Positions 25,149-39,000 of a stretch of DNA of 64,000 bases are shown here, in pieces. The position numbers and the translations under genes are program-made. Source of the stretch: Gammaproteobacteria bacterium (GTDB taxonomy: Bacteria > Pseudomonadota > Gammaproteobacteria > Ga0077536). The stretch is taken from positions 2,752,001 through 2,816,000 of the forward strand of contig CAXXLL010000003.1 in the NCBI GenBank assembly GCA_963662545.2, given 5' to 3'. Each line of letters starts with the position of its first letter. Position 1 is the stretch's first letter. Below the pieces are notes generated by a model. That model saw only the letters and a program-made list of their open reading frames with translations, was not told the DNA's origin and made no database searches.

Positions 25149-25951
25149 GTGTGCATCCCTAAACGCGATGCGGTTGAAATAAAAAGGAAAATTTGTCGCT
25201 TAAGGGATCGAAACCTCCGGTGGGTCGTGATCTAATGGAACTTCAAACCTCTGATTTTCCACACAATCATCGACACCACAGGAGGGGGAATGCGTCAGAA
25301 ACGCACGGCCCAAGCGAGTATATACGAGCTGTTTGCTGACCATGACCTGGGGCGAGAGCTGCAGGGCATGTCCGAGTGGCTCGATGCTCACCCCAAGGTC
25401 CTCACGCCGGTCATGAACGATCTGTGTCGGCGGGGTTTGAAGCCCACCGGTCGACGCGGACTGTCGGCGGAGTCGGTGCTGCGCTGCGCGGTGCTCAAGC
25501 AGCACCGGCAATTGAGTTACGAGGAGCTGGCCTTTCACCTGCAGGACTCGGCGAGCTTTCAGGCCTTCGCCCGGTTGCCGGGTAATGAACGTCCGAAGAA
25601 GTCTGCCTTACAGCGGGTGGTCTCGGCGATCCAGGTATCGACGTGGGAGTCTATTCATCGCGCCCTGCTGGCGACGGCGAAAGAGACGCGCATTGAGCCG
25701 GCACAGCGTGTACGGATTGATAGCACGGTAACGGACAGTGCCATCCACGCGCCGAGCGACAGTCATCTGCTGTGGGATGGCGTGCGTGTTGTGGTTCGTC
25801 TGCTCGCACAGGCGCGCGAGTTGCCTGGCGCGCCGGAGTTGTGCTTCGTGAACCACACTCGATTGGCGAAGAAGCGTGCGCGGGCGCTGTGGTATGCGCG
25901 TGGTGCGAAGCAACGCCAACGTCTGTATCGCGATTTGATTGGGGCGACGCG
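25149..25951 (+). mobile_element. ISNCY/IS5-like IS copy 3, truncated by IS6
   Basis: Identical to copy 1 up to ..DLIGATR, then IS6 IR. Confidence 0.85.
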
Positions 25952-26749
25952 GGTTCTGTCAGGTTGGCGCCGGATCGCGGACAATTAACGCATGACAGAA
26001 GCTCCTAATTATCGCGGATATCGATTTCCGCCTGAAATCATCGCGCGGTCGGTGTGGTTGTACCCTCGTTTTACGCTCAGCTTTCGCGATATCGAAGACC
26101 TTTTAGCCGAGCGCGGCGTGACGGTTTCGTATGAAACTATCCGCCAGTGGTGTCTGACGTTTGGACCCGATTACGCTCGCCGAATTAGGAAACATCAGGG
26201 GCCTTGCGGCGACTGTTGGTTTCTCGATGAGGTCGTCGTCTCAATTCAAGGAAAGCGTCGTTACCTTTGGCGAGCCGTGGACCAAGACGGCGATCTGATG
26301 GAGATCCTCGTACAAAAACGCAAGGATACTAAAGCCGCTAAGCGCTTCTTTCGAAAGGCGCTACGCTCACAAACAGCCGTTCCTATCGAGATAACAACCG
26401 ATAAGCTCCGTAGTTACGCCTCAGCCAAACGCGAGGTAATGCCGTCCGTGCCACACTGCCAAGATCACTATGCGAATAACCGCGCGGAAGTTTCACACGA
26501 GCCGACGCGGGAACAAGAAAGGCAGATGCGCGGGTTTCGATCGGACGGACACGCGCAGCGCTTTCTAAGCGTCCACGGTCAAGTCAACAATCTGTTTCGC
26601 CTCGGTCGTCATCTCCTCAGAGCGAAGAACTATCGTGAACTACGCTCCAAGGCATTTCTCACTTGGTCGGAGGTGACATGCGCCTGCTGATTGACGATGA
26701 TTCTACTTGCTCGAAAGATCGGGCCTGCGCGCAACAACCTGACAAAACC
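25952..26749 (+). mobile_element. IS6-family element; transposase 25992-26690
   Basis: YRFPPEII, WFLDEV, LWRAVDQDG, TDKLRSY, NNRAEVSH; IRs GGTTCTGTCAGGTTG / GGTTTTGTCAGGTTG. Confidence 0.92.
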
Positions 26750-26792: not shown

Positions 26793-26885
26793 AAAAAATA
26801 AAAAGGGCCCGACGATGTCGGACCCTTTGGGTACAGCATTTTGCTTTATTGTAACAACGGCTCTCACCCCGGATTGCTGCAATAG
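26793..26885 (-). ncRNA. tracrRNA (type II-C)
   Basis: Anti-repeat: 22/23 match CTCTCACCCCGGATTGCTGCAAT to the repeat, then a bulge and further pairing (26848-26883); followed on minus by hairpin AAAGGGTCCGAC..GTCGGGCCCTTT and a U tract. Confidence 0.9.
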
Positions 26886-26908: not shown

Positions 26909-29900
26909 GTGATGACGCGCAACAATCTCTCCCTAGGCCTCGACATAGGAATCGCATCAGTTGGTTGGGCTGTCCTGGATTCGGATCACATCATCGCTCT
27001 CGGCGTTCGAGCATTCAATAAGGCCGAAGTCGCTCAAACAGGGGAGTCACTCAATCTTCAACGACGTAGCGCACGACTTGCGAGGCGTACATTAAGACAC
27101 CGACGTCAAAGGCTCGCAAAGCTCGCGAAACTACTAGAAGCCTCGGGCGTTATCACAAAAGAGCGGCTTTACGCCACACCGACGCGAGAAAGTTATCCAT
27201 CGCCTTGGGCTCTTCGAGTCAAAGGTTTAGATGAATGTCTTGCGGGCGAGGAATGGGGCCGCGTTATCTATCACATTTGTAAGCACCGTGGTTTTCATTG
27301 GGTTAGCCGTGTGGAGGAAAAAAAGTCTGGCGAGAATGCGAAACAAGAAGGCGGAAAAGTGAAGCAGGCCCTCAAATCGACGAGAGGTCTATTTGCTTCT
27401 AAGAAATATCGCTCAGCTGCCGAGATGATTATCTCTGAATTTCCCGATGCCTATCGGAACAAGCATGGTGATTATGGAAAAGCGCTGTCTAGAACACTGT
27501 TAAGCGAGGAACTCGAACTCCTTTTCCAACGGCAAAGTTGCCTTAAGAATCCACATGCAACCGATTTTCTAAAAAATGCAGTGTTGGGTAAGGGGGACAA
27601 GAAGACAGGCCTTCTCTGGGAACAACACCCTGCACTGTCTGGGGATGCGCTGCTTGCCATGCTCGGGAAATGCACGTTTGAGCGTCAAGAGTACCGGGCA
27701 CCGCGAAAGAGCTTCACTGCCGAACGTCATGTTTTATTGACGCGGCTCAACAATCTTCGAATAACCATTGACGGTGCAAGAAGGCCACTGACCGACAATG
27801 AGCGCCGATGTGCTCTATCACTTTCTTATGAACGGGCGGCTGATATTAAGTATTCAAAACTTCGGTCAGCCTTAGAAAAGACTTGCGGAACACCTTCTGA
27901 GTTTGCATTCGTGGGGCTTGCCTATCCGAGTGAGTTTCAAAAACAAGAGGAGAAAGCAAAGAATCCCGAGGAGGCAGCCGTTTTTAAATTGCCGGGCTGG
28001 CACGAACTGAGAACTACGCTTAAAAAAGCCGGTCTCGAAGACGAATGGAAACAGCTTACGTGCCTCGCATTAAAAGGTGACCCCACATTATTGGACCAAG
28101 TGGCTTGGGTTTTAAGTGTCTACAAAGAAGACGAAGAAGTGGTGGCGGCTTTGGACGATTTACCCCTGCCAAATAAAGAGGCGGTAATAGATGCGCTCCT
28201 TAGCGTGCAGTTCTCGGAGTTTCATGCATTATCGTTGAAGGCGCTTCGAAATATCGTGCCAAAAATGGAGTTAGGGCTCCGATATGATGAGGCTTGTACA
28301 CAAAGTGGTTATGACCATAGTCAACCGTTCGATCCAGAACGACAGAAAAGCCAATCACTACCGCCGTTCTACTTAGGCCATGACCATTTATCGCGAATGC
28401 GTTTAAACGAAGACGTAGGCGATTTACCCCGAAACCCAGTTGTCATGCGCGCCCTCAATCAGGCTAGGAAAGTCGTTAATGCACTAGTGGGAAAACATGG
28501 AGCTCCCCACTCTGTACATATAGAAATGGCCCGCGACCTTTCACGTCCGCTAACCGAGCGTAGAAAGATTCAAAAAGAGCAAGATGACTACCGGGATAAA
28601 AATGACAAAAACCGCAGCTTCTTTATAGAGCAGTTTAACCGCGAACCCCGAGGGCAAGAGTTCCAGAAACTTCAACTTTATCGGGAACAATCCGGTAAAT
28701 GTCTTTACTCCCTTGCTCCACTCGATCTGTCAAGATTGTTAGAGATGGGTTACGTAGAAATCGATCATGTTTTGCCGTACTCAAGAAGCTATGACGATAG
28801 TAAAAATAACAAGGCCTTAGTTCTCACAAAGCAAAATAGAGACAAAAGCGATTTAACTCCGTACGAGTATCTTCAGGGCGCTCAAGATACTGAAGCGTGG
28901 ATAAAGTTCTCGGCCTTCGTCAAGTCCAACAAAAACTACCGCGCCGCGAAACGAAACCGTCTTCTAACGAAAGACTTCGACGAAGAGAATGCTAAAGACT
29001 TCCAGGAACGAAATCTAAATGACACGCGGTATATCTGCCGATATTTCAAGAGTTACTTAGAGGAATATTTAGAACTCTCCGACGAGAGCGAACACCGACG
29101 TTGCGTGGTGGTCAATGGCCGACTAACCGCATTTCTGCGTGCTCGCTGGGGGCTCCATAAAGAACGCTCTGAGAGTGACAGACATCATGCATTGGATGCC
29201 GCGGTCGTAGCGGCGTGCACTCGCGGCATGGTCAAACGCTTGGCCGATTACGCTAAGGGCCGAGAGCTACGTTATGTTCAGGCAGATTCCATTGACCGGG
29301 AAACCGGAGAGATTATTGATTTCGACAGGTATAAAAAACTAGAGAACGAATTTCCACAACCCTGGCAAGGCTTTCGGGGAGAGCTACTCGCGCGGTTAAA
29401 CACAGACGATGTGTCCACCCTGAGAGCATCATTGTCGAAACTCGGAACTTACAGTCGTGAGGAAATCGAAGCGGTAAAACCACTCTTCGTCTCACGGGCA
29501 CCCCAACGCCGGAACTCCGGCGCAGCGCATATGGACACAATTTATCAGCAAACAACAAGGCTTAAAGATGAGCGAAAAATCAGCCAAAAAATCAAGCTCG
29601 CCGGTCTGTCTTTTCGGCAAACCAAGAAAACGCCGAAACCCATAACCGAGCAAATAGAACAATTCGTGAAAAAATTGGCTGACCCACATAGAAACCAGAA
29701 ACTCTACGACGCTGTTTGTGATCGGTTGAAGGCATTCGCGGGCGACGGGAAAAAAGCGTTCAGTGCCGAGAACCCTCTCTACAAACCGGACAAGAACGGA
29801 AACCCGACAGGACCCATTGTCCGAACAGTGACAATGAGCGAGCGAATGTCCGGGATTCCAGTTCGGGGTGGATTGGCAAAGAACGAAACCATGCTTCGCG

Positions 29901-30295
29901 TGGACACATTTTCAAAAGGAGGCAAGCACTATCTTGTCCCGGTCTATGTACACCACAAGGTAACTGGTCTACCCAATCACGCTATCGTTAGCGGGAAGGA
30001 TGAGGCCGACTGGAGAGAGGTGGACGAGACATTTGAGTTTGAATTTTCCTTATATCCGAATGACTTGTTGCAAATTTGCCTCAAAAAACAGACGCACCTT
30101 GGGTATTTTGCTGGCTGTAATCGATCCAATGGGGCCATACATTTGTGGGCCCATGATCGATCGTCCAAAGTGGGCAAAAACGGCCTAATAAGCAGTATCG
30201 GTATTCAAAGGGCAAAGCACCTTAAAAAGTTTGAAGTTGATGTGCTCGGAAACCGTTTTCTCGCGAAAGCCGGTAAGCGAGATGGGCTGGCGTAG
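26909..30295 (+). CDS. cas9: Type II-C CRISPR effector Cas9, 1128 aa
   Basis: RuvC-I LGLDIGIASVG, Arg-rich bridge helix, RuvC-II HIEMAR, HNH EIDHVLPYSRSYDDSKNNK, RuvC-III RHHALDA; RBS GGAGG. Confidence 0.97.
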   Translation: MMTRNNLSLGLDIGIASVGWAVLDSDHIIALGVRAFNKAEVAQTGESLNLQRRSARLARRTLRHRRQRLAKLAKLLEASGVITKERLYATPTRESYPSPWALRVKGLDECLAGEEWGRVIYHICKHRGFHWVSRVEEKKSGENAKQEGGKVKQALKSTRGLFASKKYRSAAEMIISEFPDAYRNKHGDYGKALSRTLLSEELELLFQRQSCLKNPHATDFLKNAVLGKGDKKTGLLWEQHPALSGDALLAMLGKCTFERQEYRAPRKSFTAERHVLLTRLNNLRITIDGARRPLTDNERRCALSLSYERAADIKYSKLRSALEKTCGTPSEFAFVGLAYPSEFQKQEEKAKNPEEAAVFKLPGWHELRTTLKKAGLEDEWKQLTCLALKGDPTLLDQVAWVLSVYKEDEEVVAALDDLPLPNKEAVIDALLSVQFSEFHALSLKALRNIVPKMELGLRYDEACTQSGYDHSQPFDPERQKSQSLPPFYLGHDHLSRMRLNEDVGDLPRNPVVMRALNQARKVVNALVGKHGAPHSVHIEMARDLSRPLTERRKIQKEQDDYRDKNDKNRSFFIEQFNREPRGQEFQKLQLYREQSGKCLYSLAPLDLSRLLEMGYVEIDHVLPYSRSYDDSKNNKALVLTKQNRDKSDLTPYEYLQGAQDTEAWIKFSAFVKSNKNYRAAKRNRLLTKDFDEENAKDFQERNLNDTRYICRYFKSYLEEYLELSDESEHRRCVVVNGRLTAFLRARWGLHKERSESDRHHALDAAVVAACTRGMVKRLADYAKGRELRYVQADSIDRETGEIIDFDRYKKLENEFPQPWQGFRGELLARLNTDDVSTLRASLSKLGTYSREEIEAVKPLFVSRAPQRRNSGAAHMDTIYQQTTRLKDERKISQKIKLAGLSFRQTKKTPKPITEQIEQFVKKLADPHRNQKLYDAVCDRLKAFAGDGKKAFSAENPLYKPDKNGNPTGPIVRTVTMSERMSGIPVRGGLAKNETMLRVDTFSKGGKHYLVPVYVHHKVTGLPNHAIVSGKDEADWREVDETFEFEFSLYPNDLLQICLKKQTHLGYFAGCNRSNGAIHLWAHDRSSKVGKNGLISSIGIQRAKHLKKFEVDVLGNRFLAKAGKRDGLA

Positions 30296-31190
30296 CGTTG
30301 TCATTTCGTCCCCAGCAGTGCTTAAACGACGGCACAATTCTCTCGCGATTATTCAAGGCAACACGGCGCTCATACCGTTTGAAGATATCGCGGTTATCAT
30401 TTTAAACCACCGAGAAATTACGTTAACGCACCCGGTCTTAAGTTTCTGCTCTCAGCACGGAATAGCGCTCTTCGCAACAGGAGATGACCATCAGCCGTGC
30501 GGTGTTTTCGTTCCGTTCCTTACGCATACCAGGACTACCAAGTTACTACGACAACAGCTGTCAGCCCCGAAACCGTTAACTAAGCGGACTTGGGCTGCAA
30601 TCGTTCAATCGAAGATCCACAATCAATCCACTTGCCTGCGACTATCGGGTAAGCGGGGTGCGTCTCAATTGGAGTCCTATAGGCGCCGCGTCAGATCTGG
30701 TGACAGCACCAACATGGAAGGCCAAGCCGCCTGGGCATATTTCACCCAACTGTTCGGCGATAAGTTCCGACGGGGCGCAGACGATTGGAGAAACTCCGCT
30801 CTTAACTATGGATACGCTGTACTTAGGGGGGCGATCGCCCGCTCTTTGGTGGGGCATGGTTTTCATCCGAGTGTTGGCTTGTTTCATTCGAGCGAACGAA
30901 ATGCATTCAACTTAGCTGACGACATCATTGAGCCTTTCAGGCCTGTCGTAGACCTATCGGTCGTAAAACGCTATGGCAACAGTGACAAGATAGCGCTTAC
31001 AACCGAAGACAAGGCTTATTTAATATCGTTGCTCAACGTCGATGTCAGCTTGTCTAACGACAAAACATCCGTGCTGTCCGCAATCGATGATGTTGTCACC
31101 AGCATCATGCGAGTTTTTGAACAGCAAGACGAAGCTCTGCTCGTTCTTCCCATTTTGCTGGGGATGAATCAACACGTCGATAATGATTGA
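30282..31190 (+). CDS. cas1: Type II Cas1
   Basis: MGWRSVVI, IPFEDI, NMEGQAA, NSALNYGYAVLRG, NAFNLADDIIEPFRP. Confidence 0.95.
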   Translation: MGWRSVVISSPAVLKRRHNSLAIIQGNTALIPFEDIAVIILNHREITLTHPVLSFCSQHGIALFATGDDHQPCGVFVPFLTHTRTTKLLRQQLSAPKPLTKRTWAAIVQSKIHNQSTCLRLSGKRGASQLESYRRRVRSGDSTNMEGQAAWAYFTQLFGDKFRRGADDWRNSALNYGYAVLRGAIARSLVGHGFHPSVGLFHSSERNAFNLADDIIEPFRPVVDLSVVKRYGNSDKIALTTEDKAYLISLLNVDVSLSNDKTSVLSAIDDVVTSIMRVFEQQDEALLVLPILLGMNQHVDND

Positions 31191-31216: not shown

Positions 31217-33888
31217 ATGAGAATGCTGGTGTTATTTGATCTCCCGATGGTCACGAAGGAGCAAAAACGTACATATAGTCGATTCCGTCGATATCTCCTC
31301 TCAGACGTAACCGGTCAAACGGCGGCGTCTGGTAATTGATCTCGTGTTGCGGTAACGACGGCCAAGTTAGAACGCAGCGGTTGGGTAGCGAACAATGTCT
31401 TCCACACCCGAGGCGTGAGTTGTTCCACTGCGCTATCCGGATGGATCGCGATCCTCTGGAGTACATCAACCAGGTAGGTGTACGGATTAATGCCGTGTAT
31501 TCGGCAAGTACAGATCAAACTTTGTATGATCCCAACGTGTTCAGCGCCCACCTCAGTCCAACAGAACATCCAATTCTTTCGGCCCATCGGAATGGGTCTC
31601 AGAGCGCGCTCTAAATGATTCGTGTCGATCGCGACGCTCGCATCCGATAAGTAAACACGTAACGCGCCCTCACGCTCGGCTGCATAGGCCAGCGCCTTCG
31701 TAAACGGCTGACTCGGTAATAAACCCATGCACTGGCGTTGCTCGTCAAGCCAGGCAAAAAATGCATCAACCGCAGGCAAGGCGTACCGGCTGCGGTAGGT
31801 CTGGGTCGCCGCTTCATCCATTGCCTGGTCACGGATGGTGGCCTCAACGGCATACAGTGCCGCGATCAAATCAAGTGCCTGCGCCGCACTTTGTGGCCTA
31901 TCGGATAATGCCCTTTCGAACTGACGACGCGTGTGCGCCCAGCATTGCGCATGCACGACTTCATCGCCGCGATCGGCGGCAAAACGCGCATAAGCCGCGG
32001 CGCCATCGGTTAGTAAGGTGCCTTTAAAGTCCACCAACGTTTTGTCGATGTGCGACCGCGCCTTGGTTCGCGCAAACGTGAACGCAATCTCATCCGCTTC
32101 GCCATAAATTGGCCAATACCACGCCGCGTTCATCTTGCCCTTGCCCGAGCGACCCGCCTTAATCGGCGTTTCATCCATCGCCAGCGTCTTCGATAACAAG
32201 ATATGCCGCAACTGCGCCAGATAAATCGGCTTCAACAGGTCACTTGCCTTCTGCACCCAGTGCGTCAGACTCGACCGCGCCACGGTAATGCCGTTCAGCC
32301 CCATTCGTTGATGTTGACGGTACAGCGGCAGGTGATAAGCGAACTTATCAACCAGCATCCCCGCAACCACACTCACATCCGCCAATGAGCCGGACCACAG
32401 ACCATCGGGCGCCGGGATCGTGAAGATCTGACCGTCGCTTTTGCGCTTCACTACCGGTTGGATGTACTTCAAGACCACATAGGCCGCCGGCCGTTGCGCT
32501 AAACGATAGGTGATCTTTTCACTGCTCGCTTCAAACGCATCCGCGACATCTTCAGGTACCGACAATTGGATGCATTCAATCGGCACCGAGTCATCGAAAC
32601 GTAACCCTTGATCAGTCACACAATCATCGCCACGGCGCTTTCCTTTGCGCCGCTGATAAGTGATCGTTTCTTTCTCAACCGCCGCCGTCGATGACGACTC
32701 ATCCTCGAAGCCATTGAGTAACCGTTGATCGGGATTGGGATCAATCAGCCGCCGTTCAGACTTGCGACCGAACAGTTGGCGTTTGAACCAGTCGAGTTGT
32801 TGGGTGAGTGTGGCGACCTGCGTTTTGAGGGCTGTGTTTTCCGCTTGTAACACCGCCGCATCAAGTGATATTTCCGGCGTTGCATAACCCCCATTCATGG
32901 GTACGTATTGTACCGTTTACACTGCTGACCGTCGATCGTTTTCCGGTAATCGAAACCGTTTTAATCGACGCACTGAGCGTAGATCGATCCCTTCAATAAT
33001 GCACTGCCATTCGCTGCGTTGCAGCCGCTGTTTGACCTCGCTATTCCACCGAACCTGGAACTGACCGCGTTCGAGTTTCTTACTCCACAGACAATATCCG
33101 TCCGACTCAAAGTACAGCGCTTTTAATAACGTACGCCGGCGATTGACGAAAACGTACAGTGCCCCATCGAGGGGCTCCTCGTGTAACGCCTGCCGCACCA
33201 ACGCCGATAAACCATGGAACGATTGACGCATATCAGTCGGTGCCCGACATAACCATATACGCAAACCCGATGGGGGCGACCACATCAGTGCCGTGACACA
33301 CGTAGCACGATGTCATCACCGAGCGCTAACTCGATATCCCATTGTGCATTGGTTAATGGTTGTAACGGGGCCAACTCGACGAAACGTGTTTCCGCCTTCC
33401 CTATCTGAGCGTCCCTCGCTGACCTCGACTTCCTTTTACTGAACGTCGAATATCCAATTCCTCGCTCAGCACAGAATGCGCGGATCGATGAACCGCTTTG
33501 TGCCTGCTCCGCTAATAGGCCACGCCACTCATCCGCACTACGTCGTTTGTTCCGAGGTTTTCCGTGATCATTCATTTACCAAGCTCCCGATTGACTGGGA
33601 AACCTGGCAAACTAAACCATCTGCCCGAGACCGTGAATAACGGCCTGGATTGACCGGTTACTCTCAGACGGCTACGACATGATTCAGTATTCCGTTTATG
33701 GGCGCCTTTTGAACGGTAAAGACGCGCAAGCCAAACATTTTAAACGCTTGATAAATCACTTACCGCCCGAGGGATCGATTCGATGTCTTACGATAACCGA
33801 GAAGCAATTTGCGAGCATGAAGCTGCTTGTGGGTATGCCGCTTTTTCAGGAAAAAGCCGTCACATCCGAGCAAATGCTGCTTTTTTAG
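31217..33888 (+). pseudogene. cas2: Cas2 interrupted by IS66 (31217-31306 + 33670-33888)
   Basis: MRMLVLFDLPMVTKEQKRTYSRFRRYLLSD joins in frame with [25 protein letters not shown] after removing the IS and one TSD copy. Confidence 0.95.
31307..33661 (-). mobile_element. IS66 element 1 (tnpA 33285-33575, tnpB 32917-33285, tnpC 31315-32898)
   Basis: GTAACCGGTCAA..TTGACCGGTTAC IRs; 8-bp TSD TCTCAGAC; TnpC MDETP, CWAHTRR, DTNHLERALR. Confidence 0.95.
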
Positions 33889-33904
33889 TGGTTTTAAAGA
33901 AATC

Positions 33905-33935
33905 GCAACCCCGCCGGCCTATGCCTAGCGGGGCT
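33905..33935 (-). terminator. Hairpin between cas2 and the array (probable array terminator)
   Basis: CCCCGC..GCGGGG stem followed on minus by a T-rich tract. Confidence 0.45.
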
Positions 33936-33948
33936 TCTCGGCAAGTCT

Positions 33949-34528
33949 ATTGTAGCAATCCGGGGTGAGAGAGGGAGCTACAACAGAGCTGGACGCCAGC
34001 CCCATTCGTTGATGTTGACGGTACAGCGGCAGGTGATAAGCGAACTTATCAACCAGCATCCCCGCAACCACACTCACATCCGCCATTGACAGCGTGAGAT
34101 TGTAGCAATCCGGGGTGAGAGAGGGAGCTACAACCTGTATGAATGCGTGGCGATTGTCCAGACGATTGTAGCAATCCGGGGTGAGAGAGGGAGCTACAAC
34201 TTAGGCTCCTTTTCGGACACGACCTCGATCATTGTAGCAATCCGGGGTGAGAGAGGGAGCTACAACCGCTAATGCTCTGTGCCGCAATCCAAAATAATTG
34301 TAGCAATCCGGGGTGAGAGAGGGAGCTACAACCCATTGTCACGACACAATGAAGCGGCTACAGACAAGATTGTAGCAATCCGGGGTGAGAGAGGGAGCTA
34401 CAACACCTACGCCGTCTGCGCCTGTCGGACCTGTATTGTAGCAATCCGGGGTGAGAGAGGGAGCTACAACCCGGGCTAAGTCAGTGAAAACACCATCAAC
34501 ATTGTAGCAATCCGGGGTGAGAGAGGGA
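33949..34528 (-). CRISPR. CRISPR array: 7 full and 1 truncated 36-bp repeats; 7 spacers (114, 30, 30, 30, 36, 30, 30 bp)
   Basis: Minus-strand repeat GTTGTAGCTCCCTCTCTCACCCCGGATTGCTACAAT, Neisseria II-C-like; plus-strand starts 33949, 34099, 34165, 34231, 34297, 34369, 34435, 34501. Confidence 0.97.
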
Positions 34529-36878
34529 GTAACCGGTTAAACGGCGACGTCTTGAATTCGTTTCTGCGGTGTGTTGGTCACGGCCAAATCAGACCGTAGC
34601 GGGTTATCACTGAACATCGATTTCCATACCCGCGGCGTCAACTGCTCCACCGCACTATCCGGATGGATCGCGATCCGTTGCAGCACATCGACCAGGTAGG
34701 TATACGGGTTGATACCGTGCAAGCGACACGTGCAGAGCAAACTCTGGATGATCCCAACATGCTCGGCACCCACCTCCGTCCAGCAAAACAACCACGCCTT
34801 GCGCCCCATCGGGATAGGCCGAAGTGCACGCTCTAAGTGATTGGTATCAATGGCGACACTCGGATCTGATAGATAAATCCGCAATGCGCCCTCACGCTCA
34901 CTCGCATAACCGACAGCTTTAGTAAACGGTTGGCTGGGTAATAAGTCCAGCCGCTGGCGTTGCCCATGCAACCAAGCAAAGAACGCATCCACCGCCGGCA
35001 AAGCATGTAAACCGCGAGTCGCCTGCGTCGCCACTGCCTCCATTTGTTGCTTGCGGATAGTGGCCTCAACCGTATACAGCTGACCTATCAGTTCAAGCGC
35101 GGCATGGGCGCCTGGTGGGTCATCTGACAACGCCCGTTCGAATTGGCGTCTTGTATGGGCCCAGCATTGCGCGTGCACCACATCCTCGTGTTCAATCGCA
35201 TAGCGGGTATAAGCCGCCGCACCATCCGTTAACAGCGTGCCCTTAAAGTCCAACAAGGTCTTCTCGATATGCGTGCGCGCTTTACTCGGCGCAAAGGTAA
35301 ATGCGATTTCATCCGCCTCGCCATAGATCGGCCAATACCAGGCCGTTCTCATCTTGCCTTTACCTGCGCGGCCCGCCTTGACCGGCGTCTCGTCCATCGC
35401 CAGCGTCTTCGATTGCAAGATATGCCGTAACAGCGCCAGATAAATCGGTTGCAGTAAGCCGCTCGCTTTCTTCACCCATTGCGTCAAGCTAGCACGCGAT
35501 ACCGTAATGCCATTCATCGCCAGTCGCTGATGTTGGCGATACAACGGTAAGTGATAGGCGAATTTGTCGACCAGCATCCCAGCGACCACACTCACATCCA
35601 CCATGCTGCCGGGCCACAGACCTTCCGGCGCCGCAAGGGTAACGATTTGACCATCGCGCTTGCGCTTCACCACCGGCCGGATGTACTTCAATACCACATA
35701 CGCCCCCGGCCGTTGCGCTAACCGATAGGTCACCTTCTCGCTAATCGATTCAAAGTCACCCGCCAGGTCTGCCGGTACCGATAAGCGGATGGTTTGGATC
35801 GGCACCGAGTCATCAAACCGCAAGCCTTGCTCGGTCACACAATCCGCATCACGACGCTTACCTTTGCGCCGTTGATACGTAATGGTTTCTTTCTCAACTT
35901 GCGCTGCCTCAGGCCGCGCTACGTTAAAGCCATCCAGTTGCGGTTGGTCCGGATTGGGCTCGATTAAACGCCGTTCAGACTTGCGGCCGAACAGTTGGCG
36001 TTTGAACCAGTCGAGTTGATGGGTGAGTTGTGCGACTTGCGATTTAAGGGCGGTGATTTCTGCTTGTAACATCGTCGCATCGAGGGGAGTGCAGTGTGAC
36101 GCAGCCCTCTTTCATGAGCGTGAATTATAACGTTTGCACGCTTGAACGTCGATCGTTTTCAGGTAAATTAAAACGCCTTAATCGACGCACTGAACGTAAG
36201 TCGATGCCTTCAATAATGCATTGCCATTCGCTACGTTGGAGCCGCTGTTTGACGTCGCTGTCCCAACGTACTTGGAACTGACCGCGCTCTAATCGTTTAC
36301 TCCAGATACAATAACCATCTACTTCAAAGTACAACGCCTTCAGCAATGTCCGTCGGCGATTCACAAAAACGTACAACGCACCGTCGAGCGGGTCTTCGTT
36401 TAAGCCTTGGCGGACCAAAGCCGACAAGCCGTGAAAAGATTTACGCATGTCGGTCGGCGACCGGCACAACCAAATGCGCAAACCGCAAGGCGCTGACCAC
36501 ATCAGCGACGCGCCAACCGCAACACAATATCGGGGCCCAGGGTGACCTCGACATCCCAACCATCATTTGACGATGACCGTGGCGGTGATAACTCAATGAA
36601 GGGGATTGTTTGTGACGCGGTTTGCTCCGCCCCGGATAATGCCGACTTCCAGCGCGCAAAGGTTGAATAACCGATGCCGCGTTGCGCGCAAAAAGCTTTG
36701 ACCGAGAGCCCACTTTGGGCTTGCTCTGCGAACAATGCTCGCCACGCGGCGGGTGTACGGCGCTTCCAGCGGGATTTGCGTTGTGGTGTCATGTGCCAGG
36801 CTCCTAACGGGACGGAAAACCTGGCAAACTAACTCACTGCCATTTAAATCGGAATGACGGTCTGGTTTAACCGCTTAC
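34529..36878 (-). mobile_element. IS66 element 2 (tnpA 36502-36792, tnpB 36125-36502, tnpC 34537-36072), inserted in a CRISPR repeat
   Basis: GTAACCGGTTAAAC..GTTTAACCGCTTAC IRs; paralog of element 1; no TSD. Confidence 0.93.
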
Positions 36879-39000
36879 GTTCCTACGACCGGGTCGCCGC
36901 GTTCGCACGAGCTTGGCGGGCGCAGCAGCAAGAAGCAGTAAAAGCGAGCCGCGCCGCGTTTGTCCCGCTGGTGTTTGCACCAGGAGAAGCGTTTCAATTC
37001 GACTGGAGTGACGACTGCACGGATGCAGGAGGTAGAGCAATGCAGGAGCAATTGCCGAAGATTGGGCAGTGATCGGTGGCGAGCGCCGTAAGCTGATGGT
37101 CGCGCATTTCAAGCTGTCTTATAGCCGTGCGTTCATCCTCAGGGCCTACCCGTTGCAGACCCACGAGATGCTCTTCGACGCCCACAACCACGGGTTAGCG
37201 GTGCTCGGCGGTGTGCCGCAGCGCGGCATTTACGACAACATGAAGACGGCGGTGGATCGTGTCGGCCGAGGCAAAGCCCGAGCGGTCAACGCGCGTTTCC
37301 AAGCAATGGCCAGTCACTTCTTATTCGAGGCCACATTTTGTAACCCCGCCGCCGGCTGGGAGAAGGGCCAGGTCGAGAAAGGGGTGAGAGACTCACGGTC
37401 GCGACTGTGGCACGACGCGCCGAAGTTTGCCGACCTGGACGAACTCAACACCTGGTTGAGTGCGCGTTGTCAGACTCTATGGCACGAAGTCCGCCATCCG
37501 GAGCAGCCGACACAGACCATCGCTGAGGTCTGGGCGGATGAACGACCGGCGCTGATGCGGATGCCACCACCGTTTGATGGATTCATCGAACACACCAAAC
37601 GCGTCTCGCCAACGTGTTTGATCGCGTTCGAACGTAATCGTTACAGCGTACCCGCGGCTTTCGCGAACCATGCTGTGAGCTTACGGGTTTACGCGGACCG
37701 CCTCGTCGTTGCCGCCGAAGGTCATCCAGTCGTTGAACATCCTCGATTGTTTGCGCAAGGCCATGACCGTGTGGCGCAAGTGTTATACGACTGGCGTCAT
37801 TATCTGGCGGTGCTACAACGCAAACCGGGTGCATTGCGCAACGGTGCACCATTTGCGGAACTGCCAGCAGCCTTCAAACGCCTCCAGTCAATGCTGCTCA
37901 AACGTCCTGGAGGAGACCGCGAGATGGTCGACATCCTGGCGTTGGTGTTACACCACGACGAACAGACCGTGTTGTGTGCGGTAGAACTCGCGCTTGAAAC
38001 CGGCGCACCATCGAAGCAGCACGTTATAAATATTCTAAACCGGTTGCTCGCAGCAACCGCGCCGGCGCCTATCGACACGCCGGCTGGATTAAGTTTGACT
38101 GCAGAGCCGCAAGCCAATGTCGATCGCTACGATCACTTACGGGAGCGCATGCATGCCAGCTGAGGCCATGGTGACGACCTTAAAATCGTTAAAACTTCAC
38201 GGCATGGCTGACGCTATCGGTGAACTCGCTCAACAACAAGCGCCCGCTTATCACCAAGCCGAGCCGCTGCTAGAGTCACTGCTCAAAGCGGAAGTTGCAG
38301 AGCGTGAAGTGCGCTCGATCAACTATCAAATGAAAGTGGCTCGCTTCCCGGCATACCGTGACTTGGCTGGTTTCAACTGCGCCGAGAGCGCCGTTGACCA
38401 AACGCTGGTGAAGTCTCTCCATGCCGGTGATTTCATCGACGACGCACACCACGTCGTGTTCATCGGCGGACCTGGGACAGGCAAGACCCATTTAGCAACG
38501 GCGATTGGCGTCCATGCGATCAGACATCTTCATCTGCGCGTTCGCTGCTTCTCTACCATCGAACTTGTCAACCTGATCGAGCAAGAAAAGGCAGACGGCA
38601 AACCCGGACAAATGGCTAATCGTCTTGTCCATGCCGATCTCGTCATTCTCGATGAACTCGGTTATTTACCATTCTCGCGAGCGGGCGGCGCATTGCTCTT
38701 CCATTTACTGAGCAAGCTATACGAACGTACCAGCGTCGTCATCACGACGAATCTCAGTTTTTCTGAATGGTCGAGCGTGTTCGTCGACCCGAAAATGACG
38801 ACCGCACTTTTGGACCGATTCACGCATCACTGCCATATCGCTGAGACTGGCAATGATAGCTATCGATTCAAAAACAGTTCAATACGCGAGAAAAAGGAAA
38901 AGAAGACTAGAAAATTATCAAAGTAACGAGCCATACTGGCTCTTCCGGGTGGGTCAATTTTCAATGCAAATCCCGGATCACTTTTCGATGCAACTCAACA
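36879..39000 (+). mobile_element. IS21 element 1, 5' truncated (istA remnant 36879-38163 with frameshifting insertion; istB 38153-38926)
   Basis: GIYDNMKTAV, WEKGQVE; Ist[17 protein letters not shown]; end ..CAACTCAACA. Confidence 0.9.

Follow-up and report, generated by a model that had tools for sequence, protein, structure and literature searches.

The type II-C CRISPR-Cas locus of Neisseria meningitidis consists of cas9, cas1 and cas2 only, and its array is built from 36-nt repeats. Zhang et al. are said to have placed the leader end of Neisseria arrays, in 2013, on the cas2 side. In the accessible text of two further studies of Neisseria type II-C systems, each repeat is described as carrying a promoter (PMC5965381), and crRNAs are described as starting at the 6th nucleotide of each spacer, with new spacers being added at the leader end (PMC12477760). 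The crRNAs of Neisseria meningitidis are read towards the leader, from promoters that are embedded in the repeats. Besides functional loci, disrupted ones have been described, and insertion sequences inactivate CRISPR-Cas systems by landing in cas genes or in arrays, as stated in the accessible portion of PMC10359306.

Here, a related locus is described that is found in a window of 64,000 nucleotides (the whole stretch of DNA that was analysed, to which all positions refer unless a contig is named). The genome comprises 5,583,118 bases in three contigs and belongs, by run labels, to a marine bacterium. The locus and the two insertion sequences that interrupt it comprise the following features:

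26793..26883, minus strand: tracrRNA candidate recognized from its sequence, with an anti-repeat (36 nt), a GC hairpin and a T-run
26909..30295, plus strand: cas9, an ORF of 1128 aa (Pfam RuvC_III 2.6e-20, HNH_4 8e-18, Cas9_RuvC, Cas9_a)
30231..31190, plus strand: cas1, an ORF of 319 aa (Pfam Cas_Cas1 6.3e-31)
31217..31306, plus strand: 5' part of cas2, interrupted by IS-A after 30 codons; an open frame results when it is joined to the sequence from 33670 on
31307..33661, minus strand: IS-A, an IS66-family element of 2355 bp, its ends defined from 13 genomic copies, with inverted ends and an 8-bp target duplication, TCTCAGAC
31315-32898, 32917-33285 and 33285-33575, minus strand: IS-A genes tnpC (527-aa ORF), tnpB and a 96-aa ORF, respectively, from ORF and Pfam analysis
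33662..33888, plus strand: 3' part of cas2; 33662-33669 is the other copy of the target duplication, 33886-33888 the stop codon
33889..33948, no strand assigned: leader-side interval of 60 nt from cas2 to repeat 1, a putative leader on the Neisseria model (accessible text of PMC12477760)
33949..33984, minus strand: repeat 1, 36 nt, exact, a match to Rfam CRISPR-DR34
34099..34528, minus strand: repeats 2-7, spacers 2-7 (30, 30, 30, 36, 30 and 30 nt) and a 29-nt stump of repeat 8, from a repeat search
34529..36879, minus strand: IS-B, a second IS66-family element, approximately 76% identical to IS-A, which truncates repeat 8 without target duplication

The gene set is that of type II-C, with cas9, cas1 and cas2 and with no csn2 or cas4, and an array is present together with a matching tracrRNA anti-repeat, in which a 28-letter stretch (26848-26875, minus strand, just upstream of cas9) agrees with the repeat in 22 letters. 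From cas9 to the array no ORF of at least 70 aa was found besides the IS-A genes and short ORFs that overlap cas9, cas1 or IS-A. The IS-A insertion that splits cas2 is bordered by a clean duplication of 8 bp, and excision of the element with one copy of TCTCAGAC restores an open, Cas2-sized frame of 108 aa; the assignment to Cas2 is made by this restored frame and its size, the Pfam scan having covered Cas9, Cas1 and the IS ORFs. The array is the only one with its repeat in the genome, and contains seven exact 36-nt repeats, starting at 33949, 34099, 34165, 34231, 34297, 34369 and 34435, followed by the 29-nt stump at 34501. Its spacers measure 114, 30, 30, 30, 36, 30 and 30 nt. The 36-nt spacer 5 (34333-34368) deviates from the 30-nt norm, which reflects either lax length control in the array or a second small insertion. 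In addition, a GC-rich hairpin (CCCCGC...GCGGGG, 33908-33933) is located between the cas2 stop codon and repeat 1; it is followed by no T-run and was not reported by a terminator scan.

On the minus strand, the Rfam family CRISPR-DR34 is matched by all seven full repeats with 38.4 bits, above its gathering score of 35. In the crRNA sense the repeat ends in TGCTACAAT, a motif resembling an extended -10 element, which we take to be the Neisseria promoter motif; a two-hexamer sigma-70 scan returned 0 sites, as expected for a promoter that lacks a -35 box. The array orientation implied by an earlier, sequence-only reading of this DNA is supported: crRNAs are read on the minus strand, toward cas2, as indicated by the seven minus-strand repeat matches together with the tracrRNA-like anti-repeat upstream of cas9. 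The locus resembles that of Neisseria meningitidis in its cas gene content and its repeats, in the position of the tracrRNA-like gene upstream of cas9, in the location of its variable end next to cas2 and in the direction of its crRNAs, and the -10-like motif makes its repeats candidates for embedded promoters. It differs from the Neisseria meningitidis locus in its marine host with a 5.58-Mb genome, in the splitting of cas2 by IS-A, in the shortening of the array by IS-B, and in two spacers of 114 and 36 nt. With cas2 split and the end of the array removed by IS-B, this is a decaying Neisseria-like type II-C locus.

IS-A is represented by 13 genomic copies, six on contig C3 and seven on contig C2 (one of these interrupted), that are 99.96-100% identical, indicating what appears to be a recent and active expansion. 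Its 527-aa ORF and tnpB product match the Pfam families DDE_Tnp_IS66 (4.1e-77) and TnpB_IS66 (4.5e-33), respectively. The interrupted copy, at contig C2:1057759-1061508, contains an insert of approximately 1.4 kb with 8 nt of IS-A (nt 369-376) on both sides. IS-B cuts repeat 8 after 29 nt and is not flanked by an 8-bp target duplication (GAGAGGGA vs TTCCTACG); the flanks of its second copy, on contig C2, likewise do not match, and the array beyond IS-B is absent from the genome. The 270 nt that follow IS-B recur elsewhere in the genome, and directly after IS-B (37069-38926) there is a 364-aa ORF with only the C-terminal domain of a Mu transposase, accompanied by an IstB-like ATPase ORF (Pfam), a pair that resembles a truncated IS21-type element. 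Just beyond the tracrRNA candidate, at 25290-26690, lie two 232-aa transposase-like ORFs (DUF772; IS240/IS6-type DDE; Pfam), and with mobile elements on that side too the CRISPR locus is boxed in by them. The two IS66-family insertions, IS-A in cas2 with its 8-bp duplication and IS-B in the last repeat, are like the cases of CRISPR-Cas inactivation in the accessible portion of PMC10359306.

The spacer next to cas2 departs from those cases. Spacer 1 extends over 114 nt (33985-34098) between the exact 36-nt repeats at 33949-33984 and 34099-34134, and its central part is a copy of IS-A sequence:

33985..33996, minus strand: repeat-adjacent non-IS end of spacer 1, 12 nt, possibly reaching 33998 via a shared CA
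33997..34085, minus strand: inserted copy, 89 nt identical to IS-A (sequence match)
34086..34098, minus strand: distal non-IS end of spacer 1, 13 nt, of which 34087-34089 (TGA) match IS-A again
32296..32384, plus strand: stretch of IS-A identical to the insert, the nearest possible donor (sequence match)

The sequence-only reading had reported that 33997-34085 equals 32296-32384 within a spacer of 114 nt. Direct sequence comparison bears this out letter for letter over 89 nt on the same strand, and repeat finding gives a longer match of 93 nt with 99% identity (32296-32388 vs 33997-34089), the lone mismatch being a T at 34086 vs an A at 32385. Judged from the two sequences, an exact match of 89 nt cannot have arisen by chance. 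Non-IS ends of 12 nt (33985-33996) and 13 nt (34086-34098) separate the IS piece from the repeats. The matching 93 nt correspond to nt 990-1082 of the 2355 nt of IS-A and to approximately residues 172-201 of TnpC, with 989 nt of IS-A before the start of the match and 1273 nt after its end. The same reading had also identified the source as the IS66 element that disrupted cas2. IS-A does split cas2, and this copy is the nearest one, 1701 bp upstream of the insert and in direct orientation; the same 93 nt are present, at 99% identity to spacer 1, in 13 of 13 copies, which are identical there, and the sequence therefore does not identify the cas2 copy as the donor.

Neither IS ends nor an 8-bp duplication were found at the insert, the flanking direct repeat amounting to 5 nt that fall within the IS match. 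An internal piece of IS-A that lacks terminal inverted repeats and the 8-bp duplication is not a product of IS66 transposition, and the difference from the cases in the accessible portion of PMC10359306 lies in exactly this internal copy of 89-93 nt. Transposition of a whole IS-A into the spacer, followed by two deletions that removed both ends, would account for the internal piece, and IS-A is an active element that landed in cas2, as IS-B landed in the array. This course nevertheless needs three events, of which neither an IS end nor an 8-bp duplication is left, and the surviving piece lies 989 and 1273 nt from the two ends of the element; it is considered highly improbable.

At 114 nt, spacer 1 is far from the near-30-nt norm of canonical Cas1-Cas2 spacers, and it does not derive from a single contiguous protospacer in IS-A, as only its central 89-93 nt match the element. 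The non-IS ends gave no match of more than 17 nt to the IS-A copies, IS-B or the rest of the genome, and the two ends joined with a gap of 0-8 nt and at most 4 mismatches gave no genomic match either. The 114 nt are hence not one contiguous resident piece, which contradicts the earlier proposal that resident IS DNA was aberrantly acquired as a single piece.

The spacer and IS-A overlap by CA (2 nt) at the left junction and by CGCCA (5 nt) at the right junction, where they agree in 8 of 9 letters (CGCCA, one mismatch, TGA). The non-IS ends plus these overlaps total 27-30 nt, and five of the six other spacers measure 30 nt. An original spacer of 30 nt of which nothing was lost needs 5 nt of junction overlap, for which the probability by chance is p ~0.005. 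The IS match spans both overlaps, which is predicted by microhomology and not by a target-site duplication; a 5-bp target-site duplication was rejected, since the match covers both CGCCA and CA and would have to be a 7-nt coincidence. A fusion of two spacers through a lost repeat was likewise discarded, as 30+36+30 gives 96 and not 114, as was repair of a Cas9 self-cut, for which the junction would lie 3 nt from the repeat instead of the 12-14 nt observed.

Two particulars of the earlier account of the junctions need revision. Removal of 84 nt was said to leave a canonical 30-mer, which is arithmetic only: there are six equally valid ways to remove 84 nt while respecting the IS match, and they give four different 30-mers, of which the proposed one is a single example. 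CGCCA microhomology was said to be present at both junctions, and two copies indeed occur (33994-33998 and 34081-34085), both overlapping the IS match; these are, however, 87 nt apart, and removing one CGCCA with the intervening letters leaves a 27-mer, which is incompatible with the 84-nt cut in one event.

The reading preferred here, on which belief and doubt are about evenly balanced, is that the insert was written from IS-A into an ordinary short spacer, as a templated insertion that took place after acquisition. Microhomology-driven template switching encompasses replication slippage between nearby direct sequences as well as FoSTeS/MMBIR-type events. An identical donor elsewhere and short overlaps at both junctions, the hallmarks of templated insertion, are both seen (13 donors; CA and CGCCA). 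Spacer 1 would originally have been an ordinary spacer of 27-30 nt, of foreign origin, in the leader-adjacent slot, and 84-87 bp from the interior of the IS-A tnpC gene would subsequently have been written into its middle when replication or gap repair switched template, guided by microhomology. The growing 3' end would have left the spacer at approximately 33996-33998, resumed synthesis on IS-A at 32294-32297, with CA as the only shared letters, and continued to 32384, after which it would have returned to the spacer through CGCCA, where 8 of 9 letters agree if the following T/A-TGA is included. The IS-A copy in cas2, 1701 bp upstream, is the likeliest and most economical template, although sequence cannot single it out. 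The case is thereby like known template switching in that the inserted letters have a perfect match 1.7 kb away in the same orientation, with overlaps of 2 nt and 5 nt (8/9), and unlike it in that the event lies in a CRISPR spacer, with junctions that could be fixed only by a pre-insertion allele. In the genome, which is 96.85% complete, no Ku homologue was found; this speaks against capture by classical end joining, and Ku-type end joining was rejected on that ground. Against templated insertion it weighs that the spacer is seen in one assembly only, that its short, un-inserted form was met in none of the collections searched (see below), that the left junction shares just 2 nt, and that an original of 27 nt would be non-canonical. 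Moreover, the spacer 1 piece is the sole short high-identity fragment of IS-A in the 5.58-Mb genome, besides the 220-nt end of the interrupted copy, and it sits in the one spacer beside the site of Cas1-Cas2 action, which a general replication error does not predict.

This placement is what speaks for an adaptation-linked accident, in which the type II-C Cas1-Cas2 complex (with Cas9) would have integrated an over-long chimeric prespacer, or in which repair tied to integration at the leader-repeat junction would have drawn IS-A DNA into the newest spacer. The only short internal piece of IS-A lies in the leader-adjacent spacer, the slot that is filled last according to the accessible text of PMC12477760 and to contigs of relatives. 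Sequencing runs, of which X18, X20, X22 and X2 were compared with the array in the form of contigs only, provided these relatives. A 1324-nt contig of run X22 contains an uninterrupted cas2 with one copy of TCTCAGAC, repeat 1, and then 209 letters unlike spacer 1, whereas a 344-nt contig of run X20 has the IS-A end joined to the 3' part of cas2 and repeat 1, as in the studied genome. Runs X18 and X2 contain spacer 6 and its repeats with no differences, and runs X20 and X2 contain spacer 7 together with the truncated repeat, continuing into IS-B in X2. The slot on the cas2 side is variable and the far end is common to strains, which fits acquisition at the cas2 side; the earlier claim that the cas2-side end is the new end thus stands, with the first slot differing in X22 and the distal spacers 6 and 7 recurring in runs from three studies. 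Among the pieces listed for these four runs none covers 33985-33996 or 34090-34098 and none skips 33997-34085, and they carry no weight either way for the insertion itself; the depth bins of X18, X20 and X22 are accounted for by the listed contigs alone.

The 36-nt spacer in the same array also suits an accident of adaptation, as it shows that length control was not strict. Against it stands the separation of the IS piece from the two repeats by 12 and 13 nt of other sequence, and ends that sum to a normal spacer length are not predicted by it. We know of no Cas1-Cas2 chemistry that gives a three-part chimera, which counts against it further, and with cas2 now broken the event must predate the insertion of IS-A there. 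Taken together, such an accident is regarded as unlikely, and the stronger statement that the 114-nt unit preserves, as it happened in nature, an error of the type II-C adaptation machinery in processing DNA for the leader-adjacent slot, through an over-long chimeric prespacer or integration-coupled repair, as quite unlikely. If it were true, the placement of the stray IS-A fragment in the newest spacer would not be coincidental. A coincidence is involved in both readings, estimated at roughly 1% for each: a local template switch would have hit spacer 1, or an adaptation error would have occurred beside a copy of IS-A.

An artefact of assembly or polishing, in which the consensus step would have introduced IS-A letters into a spacer that is really short, was also weighed. 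The spacer comes from a single assembly, and none of 23 runs compared with sampled words of 33662-34528 contained half of these words (the best shares being 0.46, 0.45 and 0.43); IS-A is moreover a 13-copy repeat, with one copy 1.7 kb away. On the other hand, the resolution of 13 near-identical 2.4-kb IS copies in three contigs suggests that repeat-spanning long reads were used, misplacement of reads by a polisher requires shared sequence, of which a short spacer and IS-A have 5-9 nt at most, and the genome has no other stray piece of IS-A, with the flanking repeats and neighbouring spacers being clean. An artefact is therefore held to be decidedly unlikely.

The spacer was sought elsewhere in both forms. 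The array was found in 0 of 40 related genomes, two of which are of the same genus. The two ends of spacer 1 with a gap of 0-10 nt gave 0 matches in the viral_contigs, metagenome_contigs and genome_contigs collections, and the un-inserted short spacer of 27-30 nt, the allele from which a templated insertion would have started, was found neither in these three nor in a phage collection; the 114-nt version was likewise not found elsewhere. The 20-mer at 33977-33996, which joins the repeat end to the first 12 nt of spacer 1, had 0 matches in genome_contigs and 2 in metagenome_contigs (L017 1501-1520 and L018 1362-1381). Both of these lie in coding-looking sequence with no CRISPR repeat or IS-A sequence alongside, in a region that may encode an FtsK-type motif, and they are treated as chance matches.

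These searches bear on the possibility that spacer 1 is one contiguous prespacer of 114 nt, taken from a foreign element, such as a plasmid or phage, in which a remnant of IS-A was present. The length variation within the array (the 36-nt spacer) and the frequent occurrence of IS66-family genes on plasmids are in keeping with such an origin. Matches in the plasmid collection, in contrast, consisted only of repeat-like arrays and of IS66 genes at approximately 84% identity or less, none reaching the ends of the spacer (best 25 of 163 records). The phage collection gave no match to spacer 1, and the 20-mer over the left junction was encountered only in the two unrelated metagenome contigs. A contiguous foreign prespacer is accordingly judged very unlikely indeed, and templated insertion into a short spacer remains the preferred reading.

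The consequences for targeting follow from the orientation of the array. With crRNAs on the minus strand, the repeat-adjacent guide end of spacer 1 is formed by the 12 non-IS nt, and the 24 nt adjoining repeat 1 consist of these 12 and 12 nt of IS-A, with no other genomic match of more than 15 nt. Lethal self-targeting is hence not to be expected, in line with the sequence-only reading. By the Cas9 seed rule, cutting of IS-A is not expected, and neither is cutting of the old target, of which only 12-14 original letters would remain at the repeat. The crRNA of the spacer 1 unit would start at the promoter of repeat 2 and would carry the extra 84-87 nt on its 5' side, and the insertion would in this way have silenced the newest spacer of an already decaying locus. 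A call of a self-targeting spacer against IS66 would be wrong here, as the repeat-adjacent end of the guide is not derived from the IS, and this is a caution for spacer-based analyses.

In the literature searched (titles and abstracts), no report was found of a CRISPR spacer that contains an internal piece of an IS. The event is a variant of known processes, template switching and IS-driven CRISPR decay, and as one instance in one assembly it opens no new question by itself. Spacer 1 is most likely a one-off scar of DNA copying and not a novel form of immune memory. If real, it would be a clean case, arisen naturally in a bacterial genome, of a templated insertion flanked by microhomology, for which the original length is known within 3 nt, and it would represent a route to the silencing of a spacer other than IS insertion or repeat-repeat deletion.
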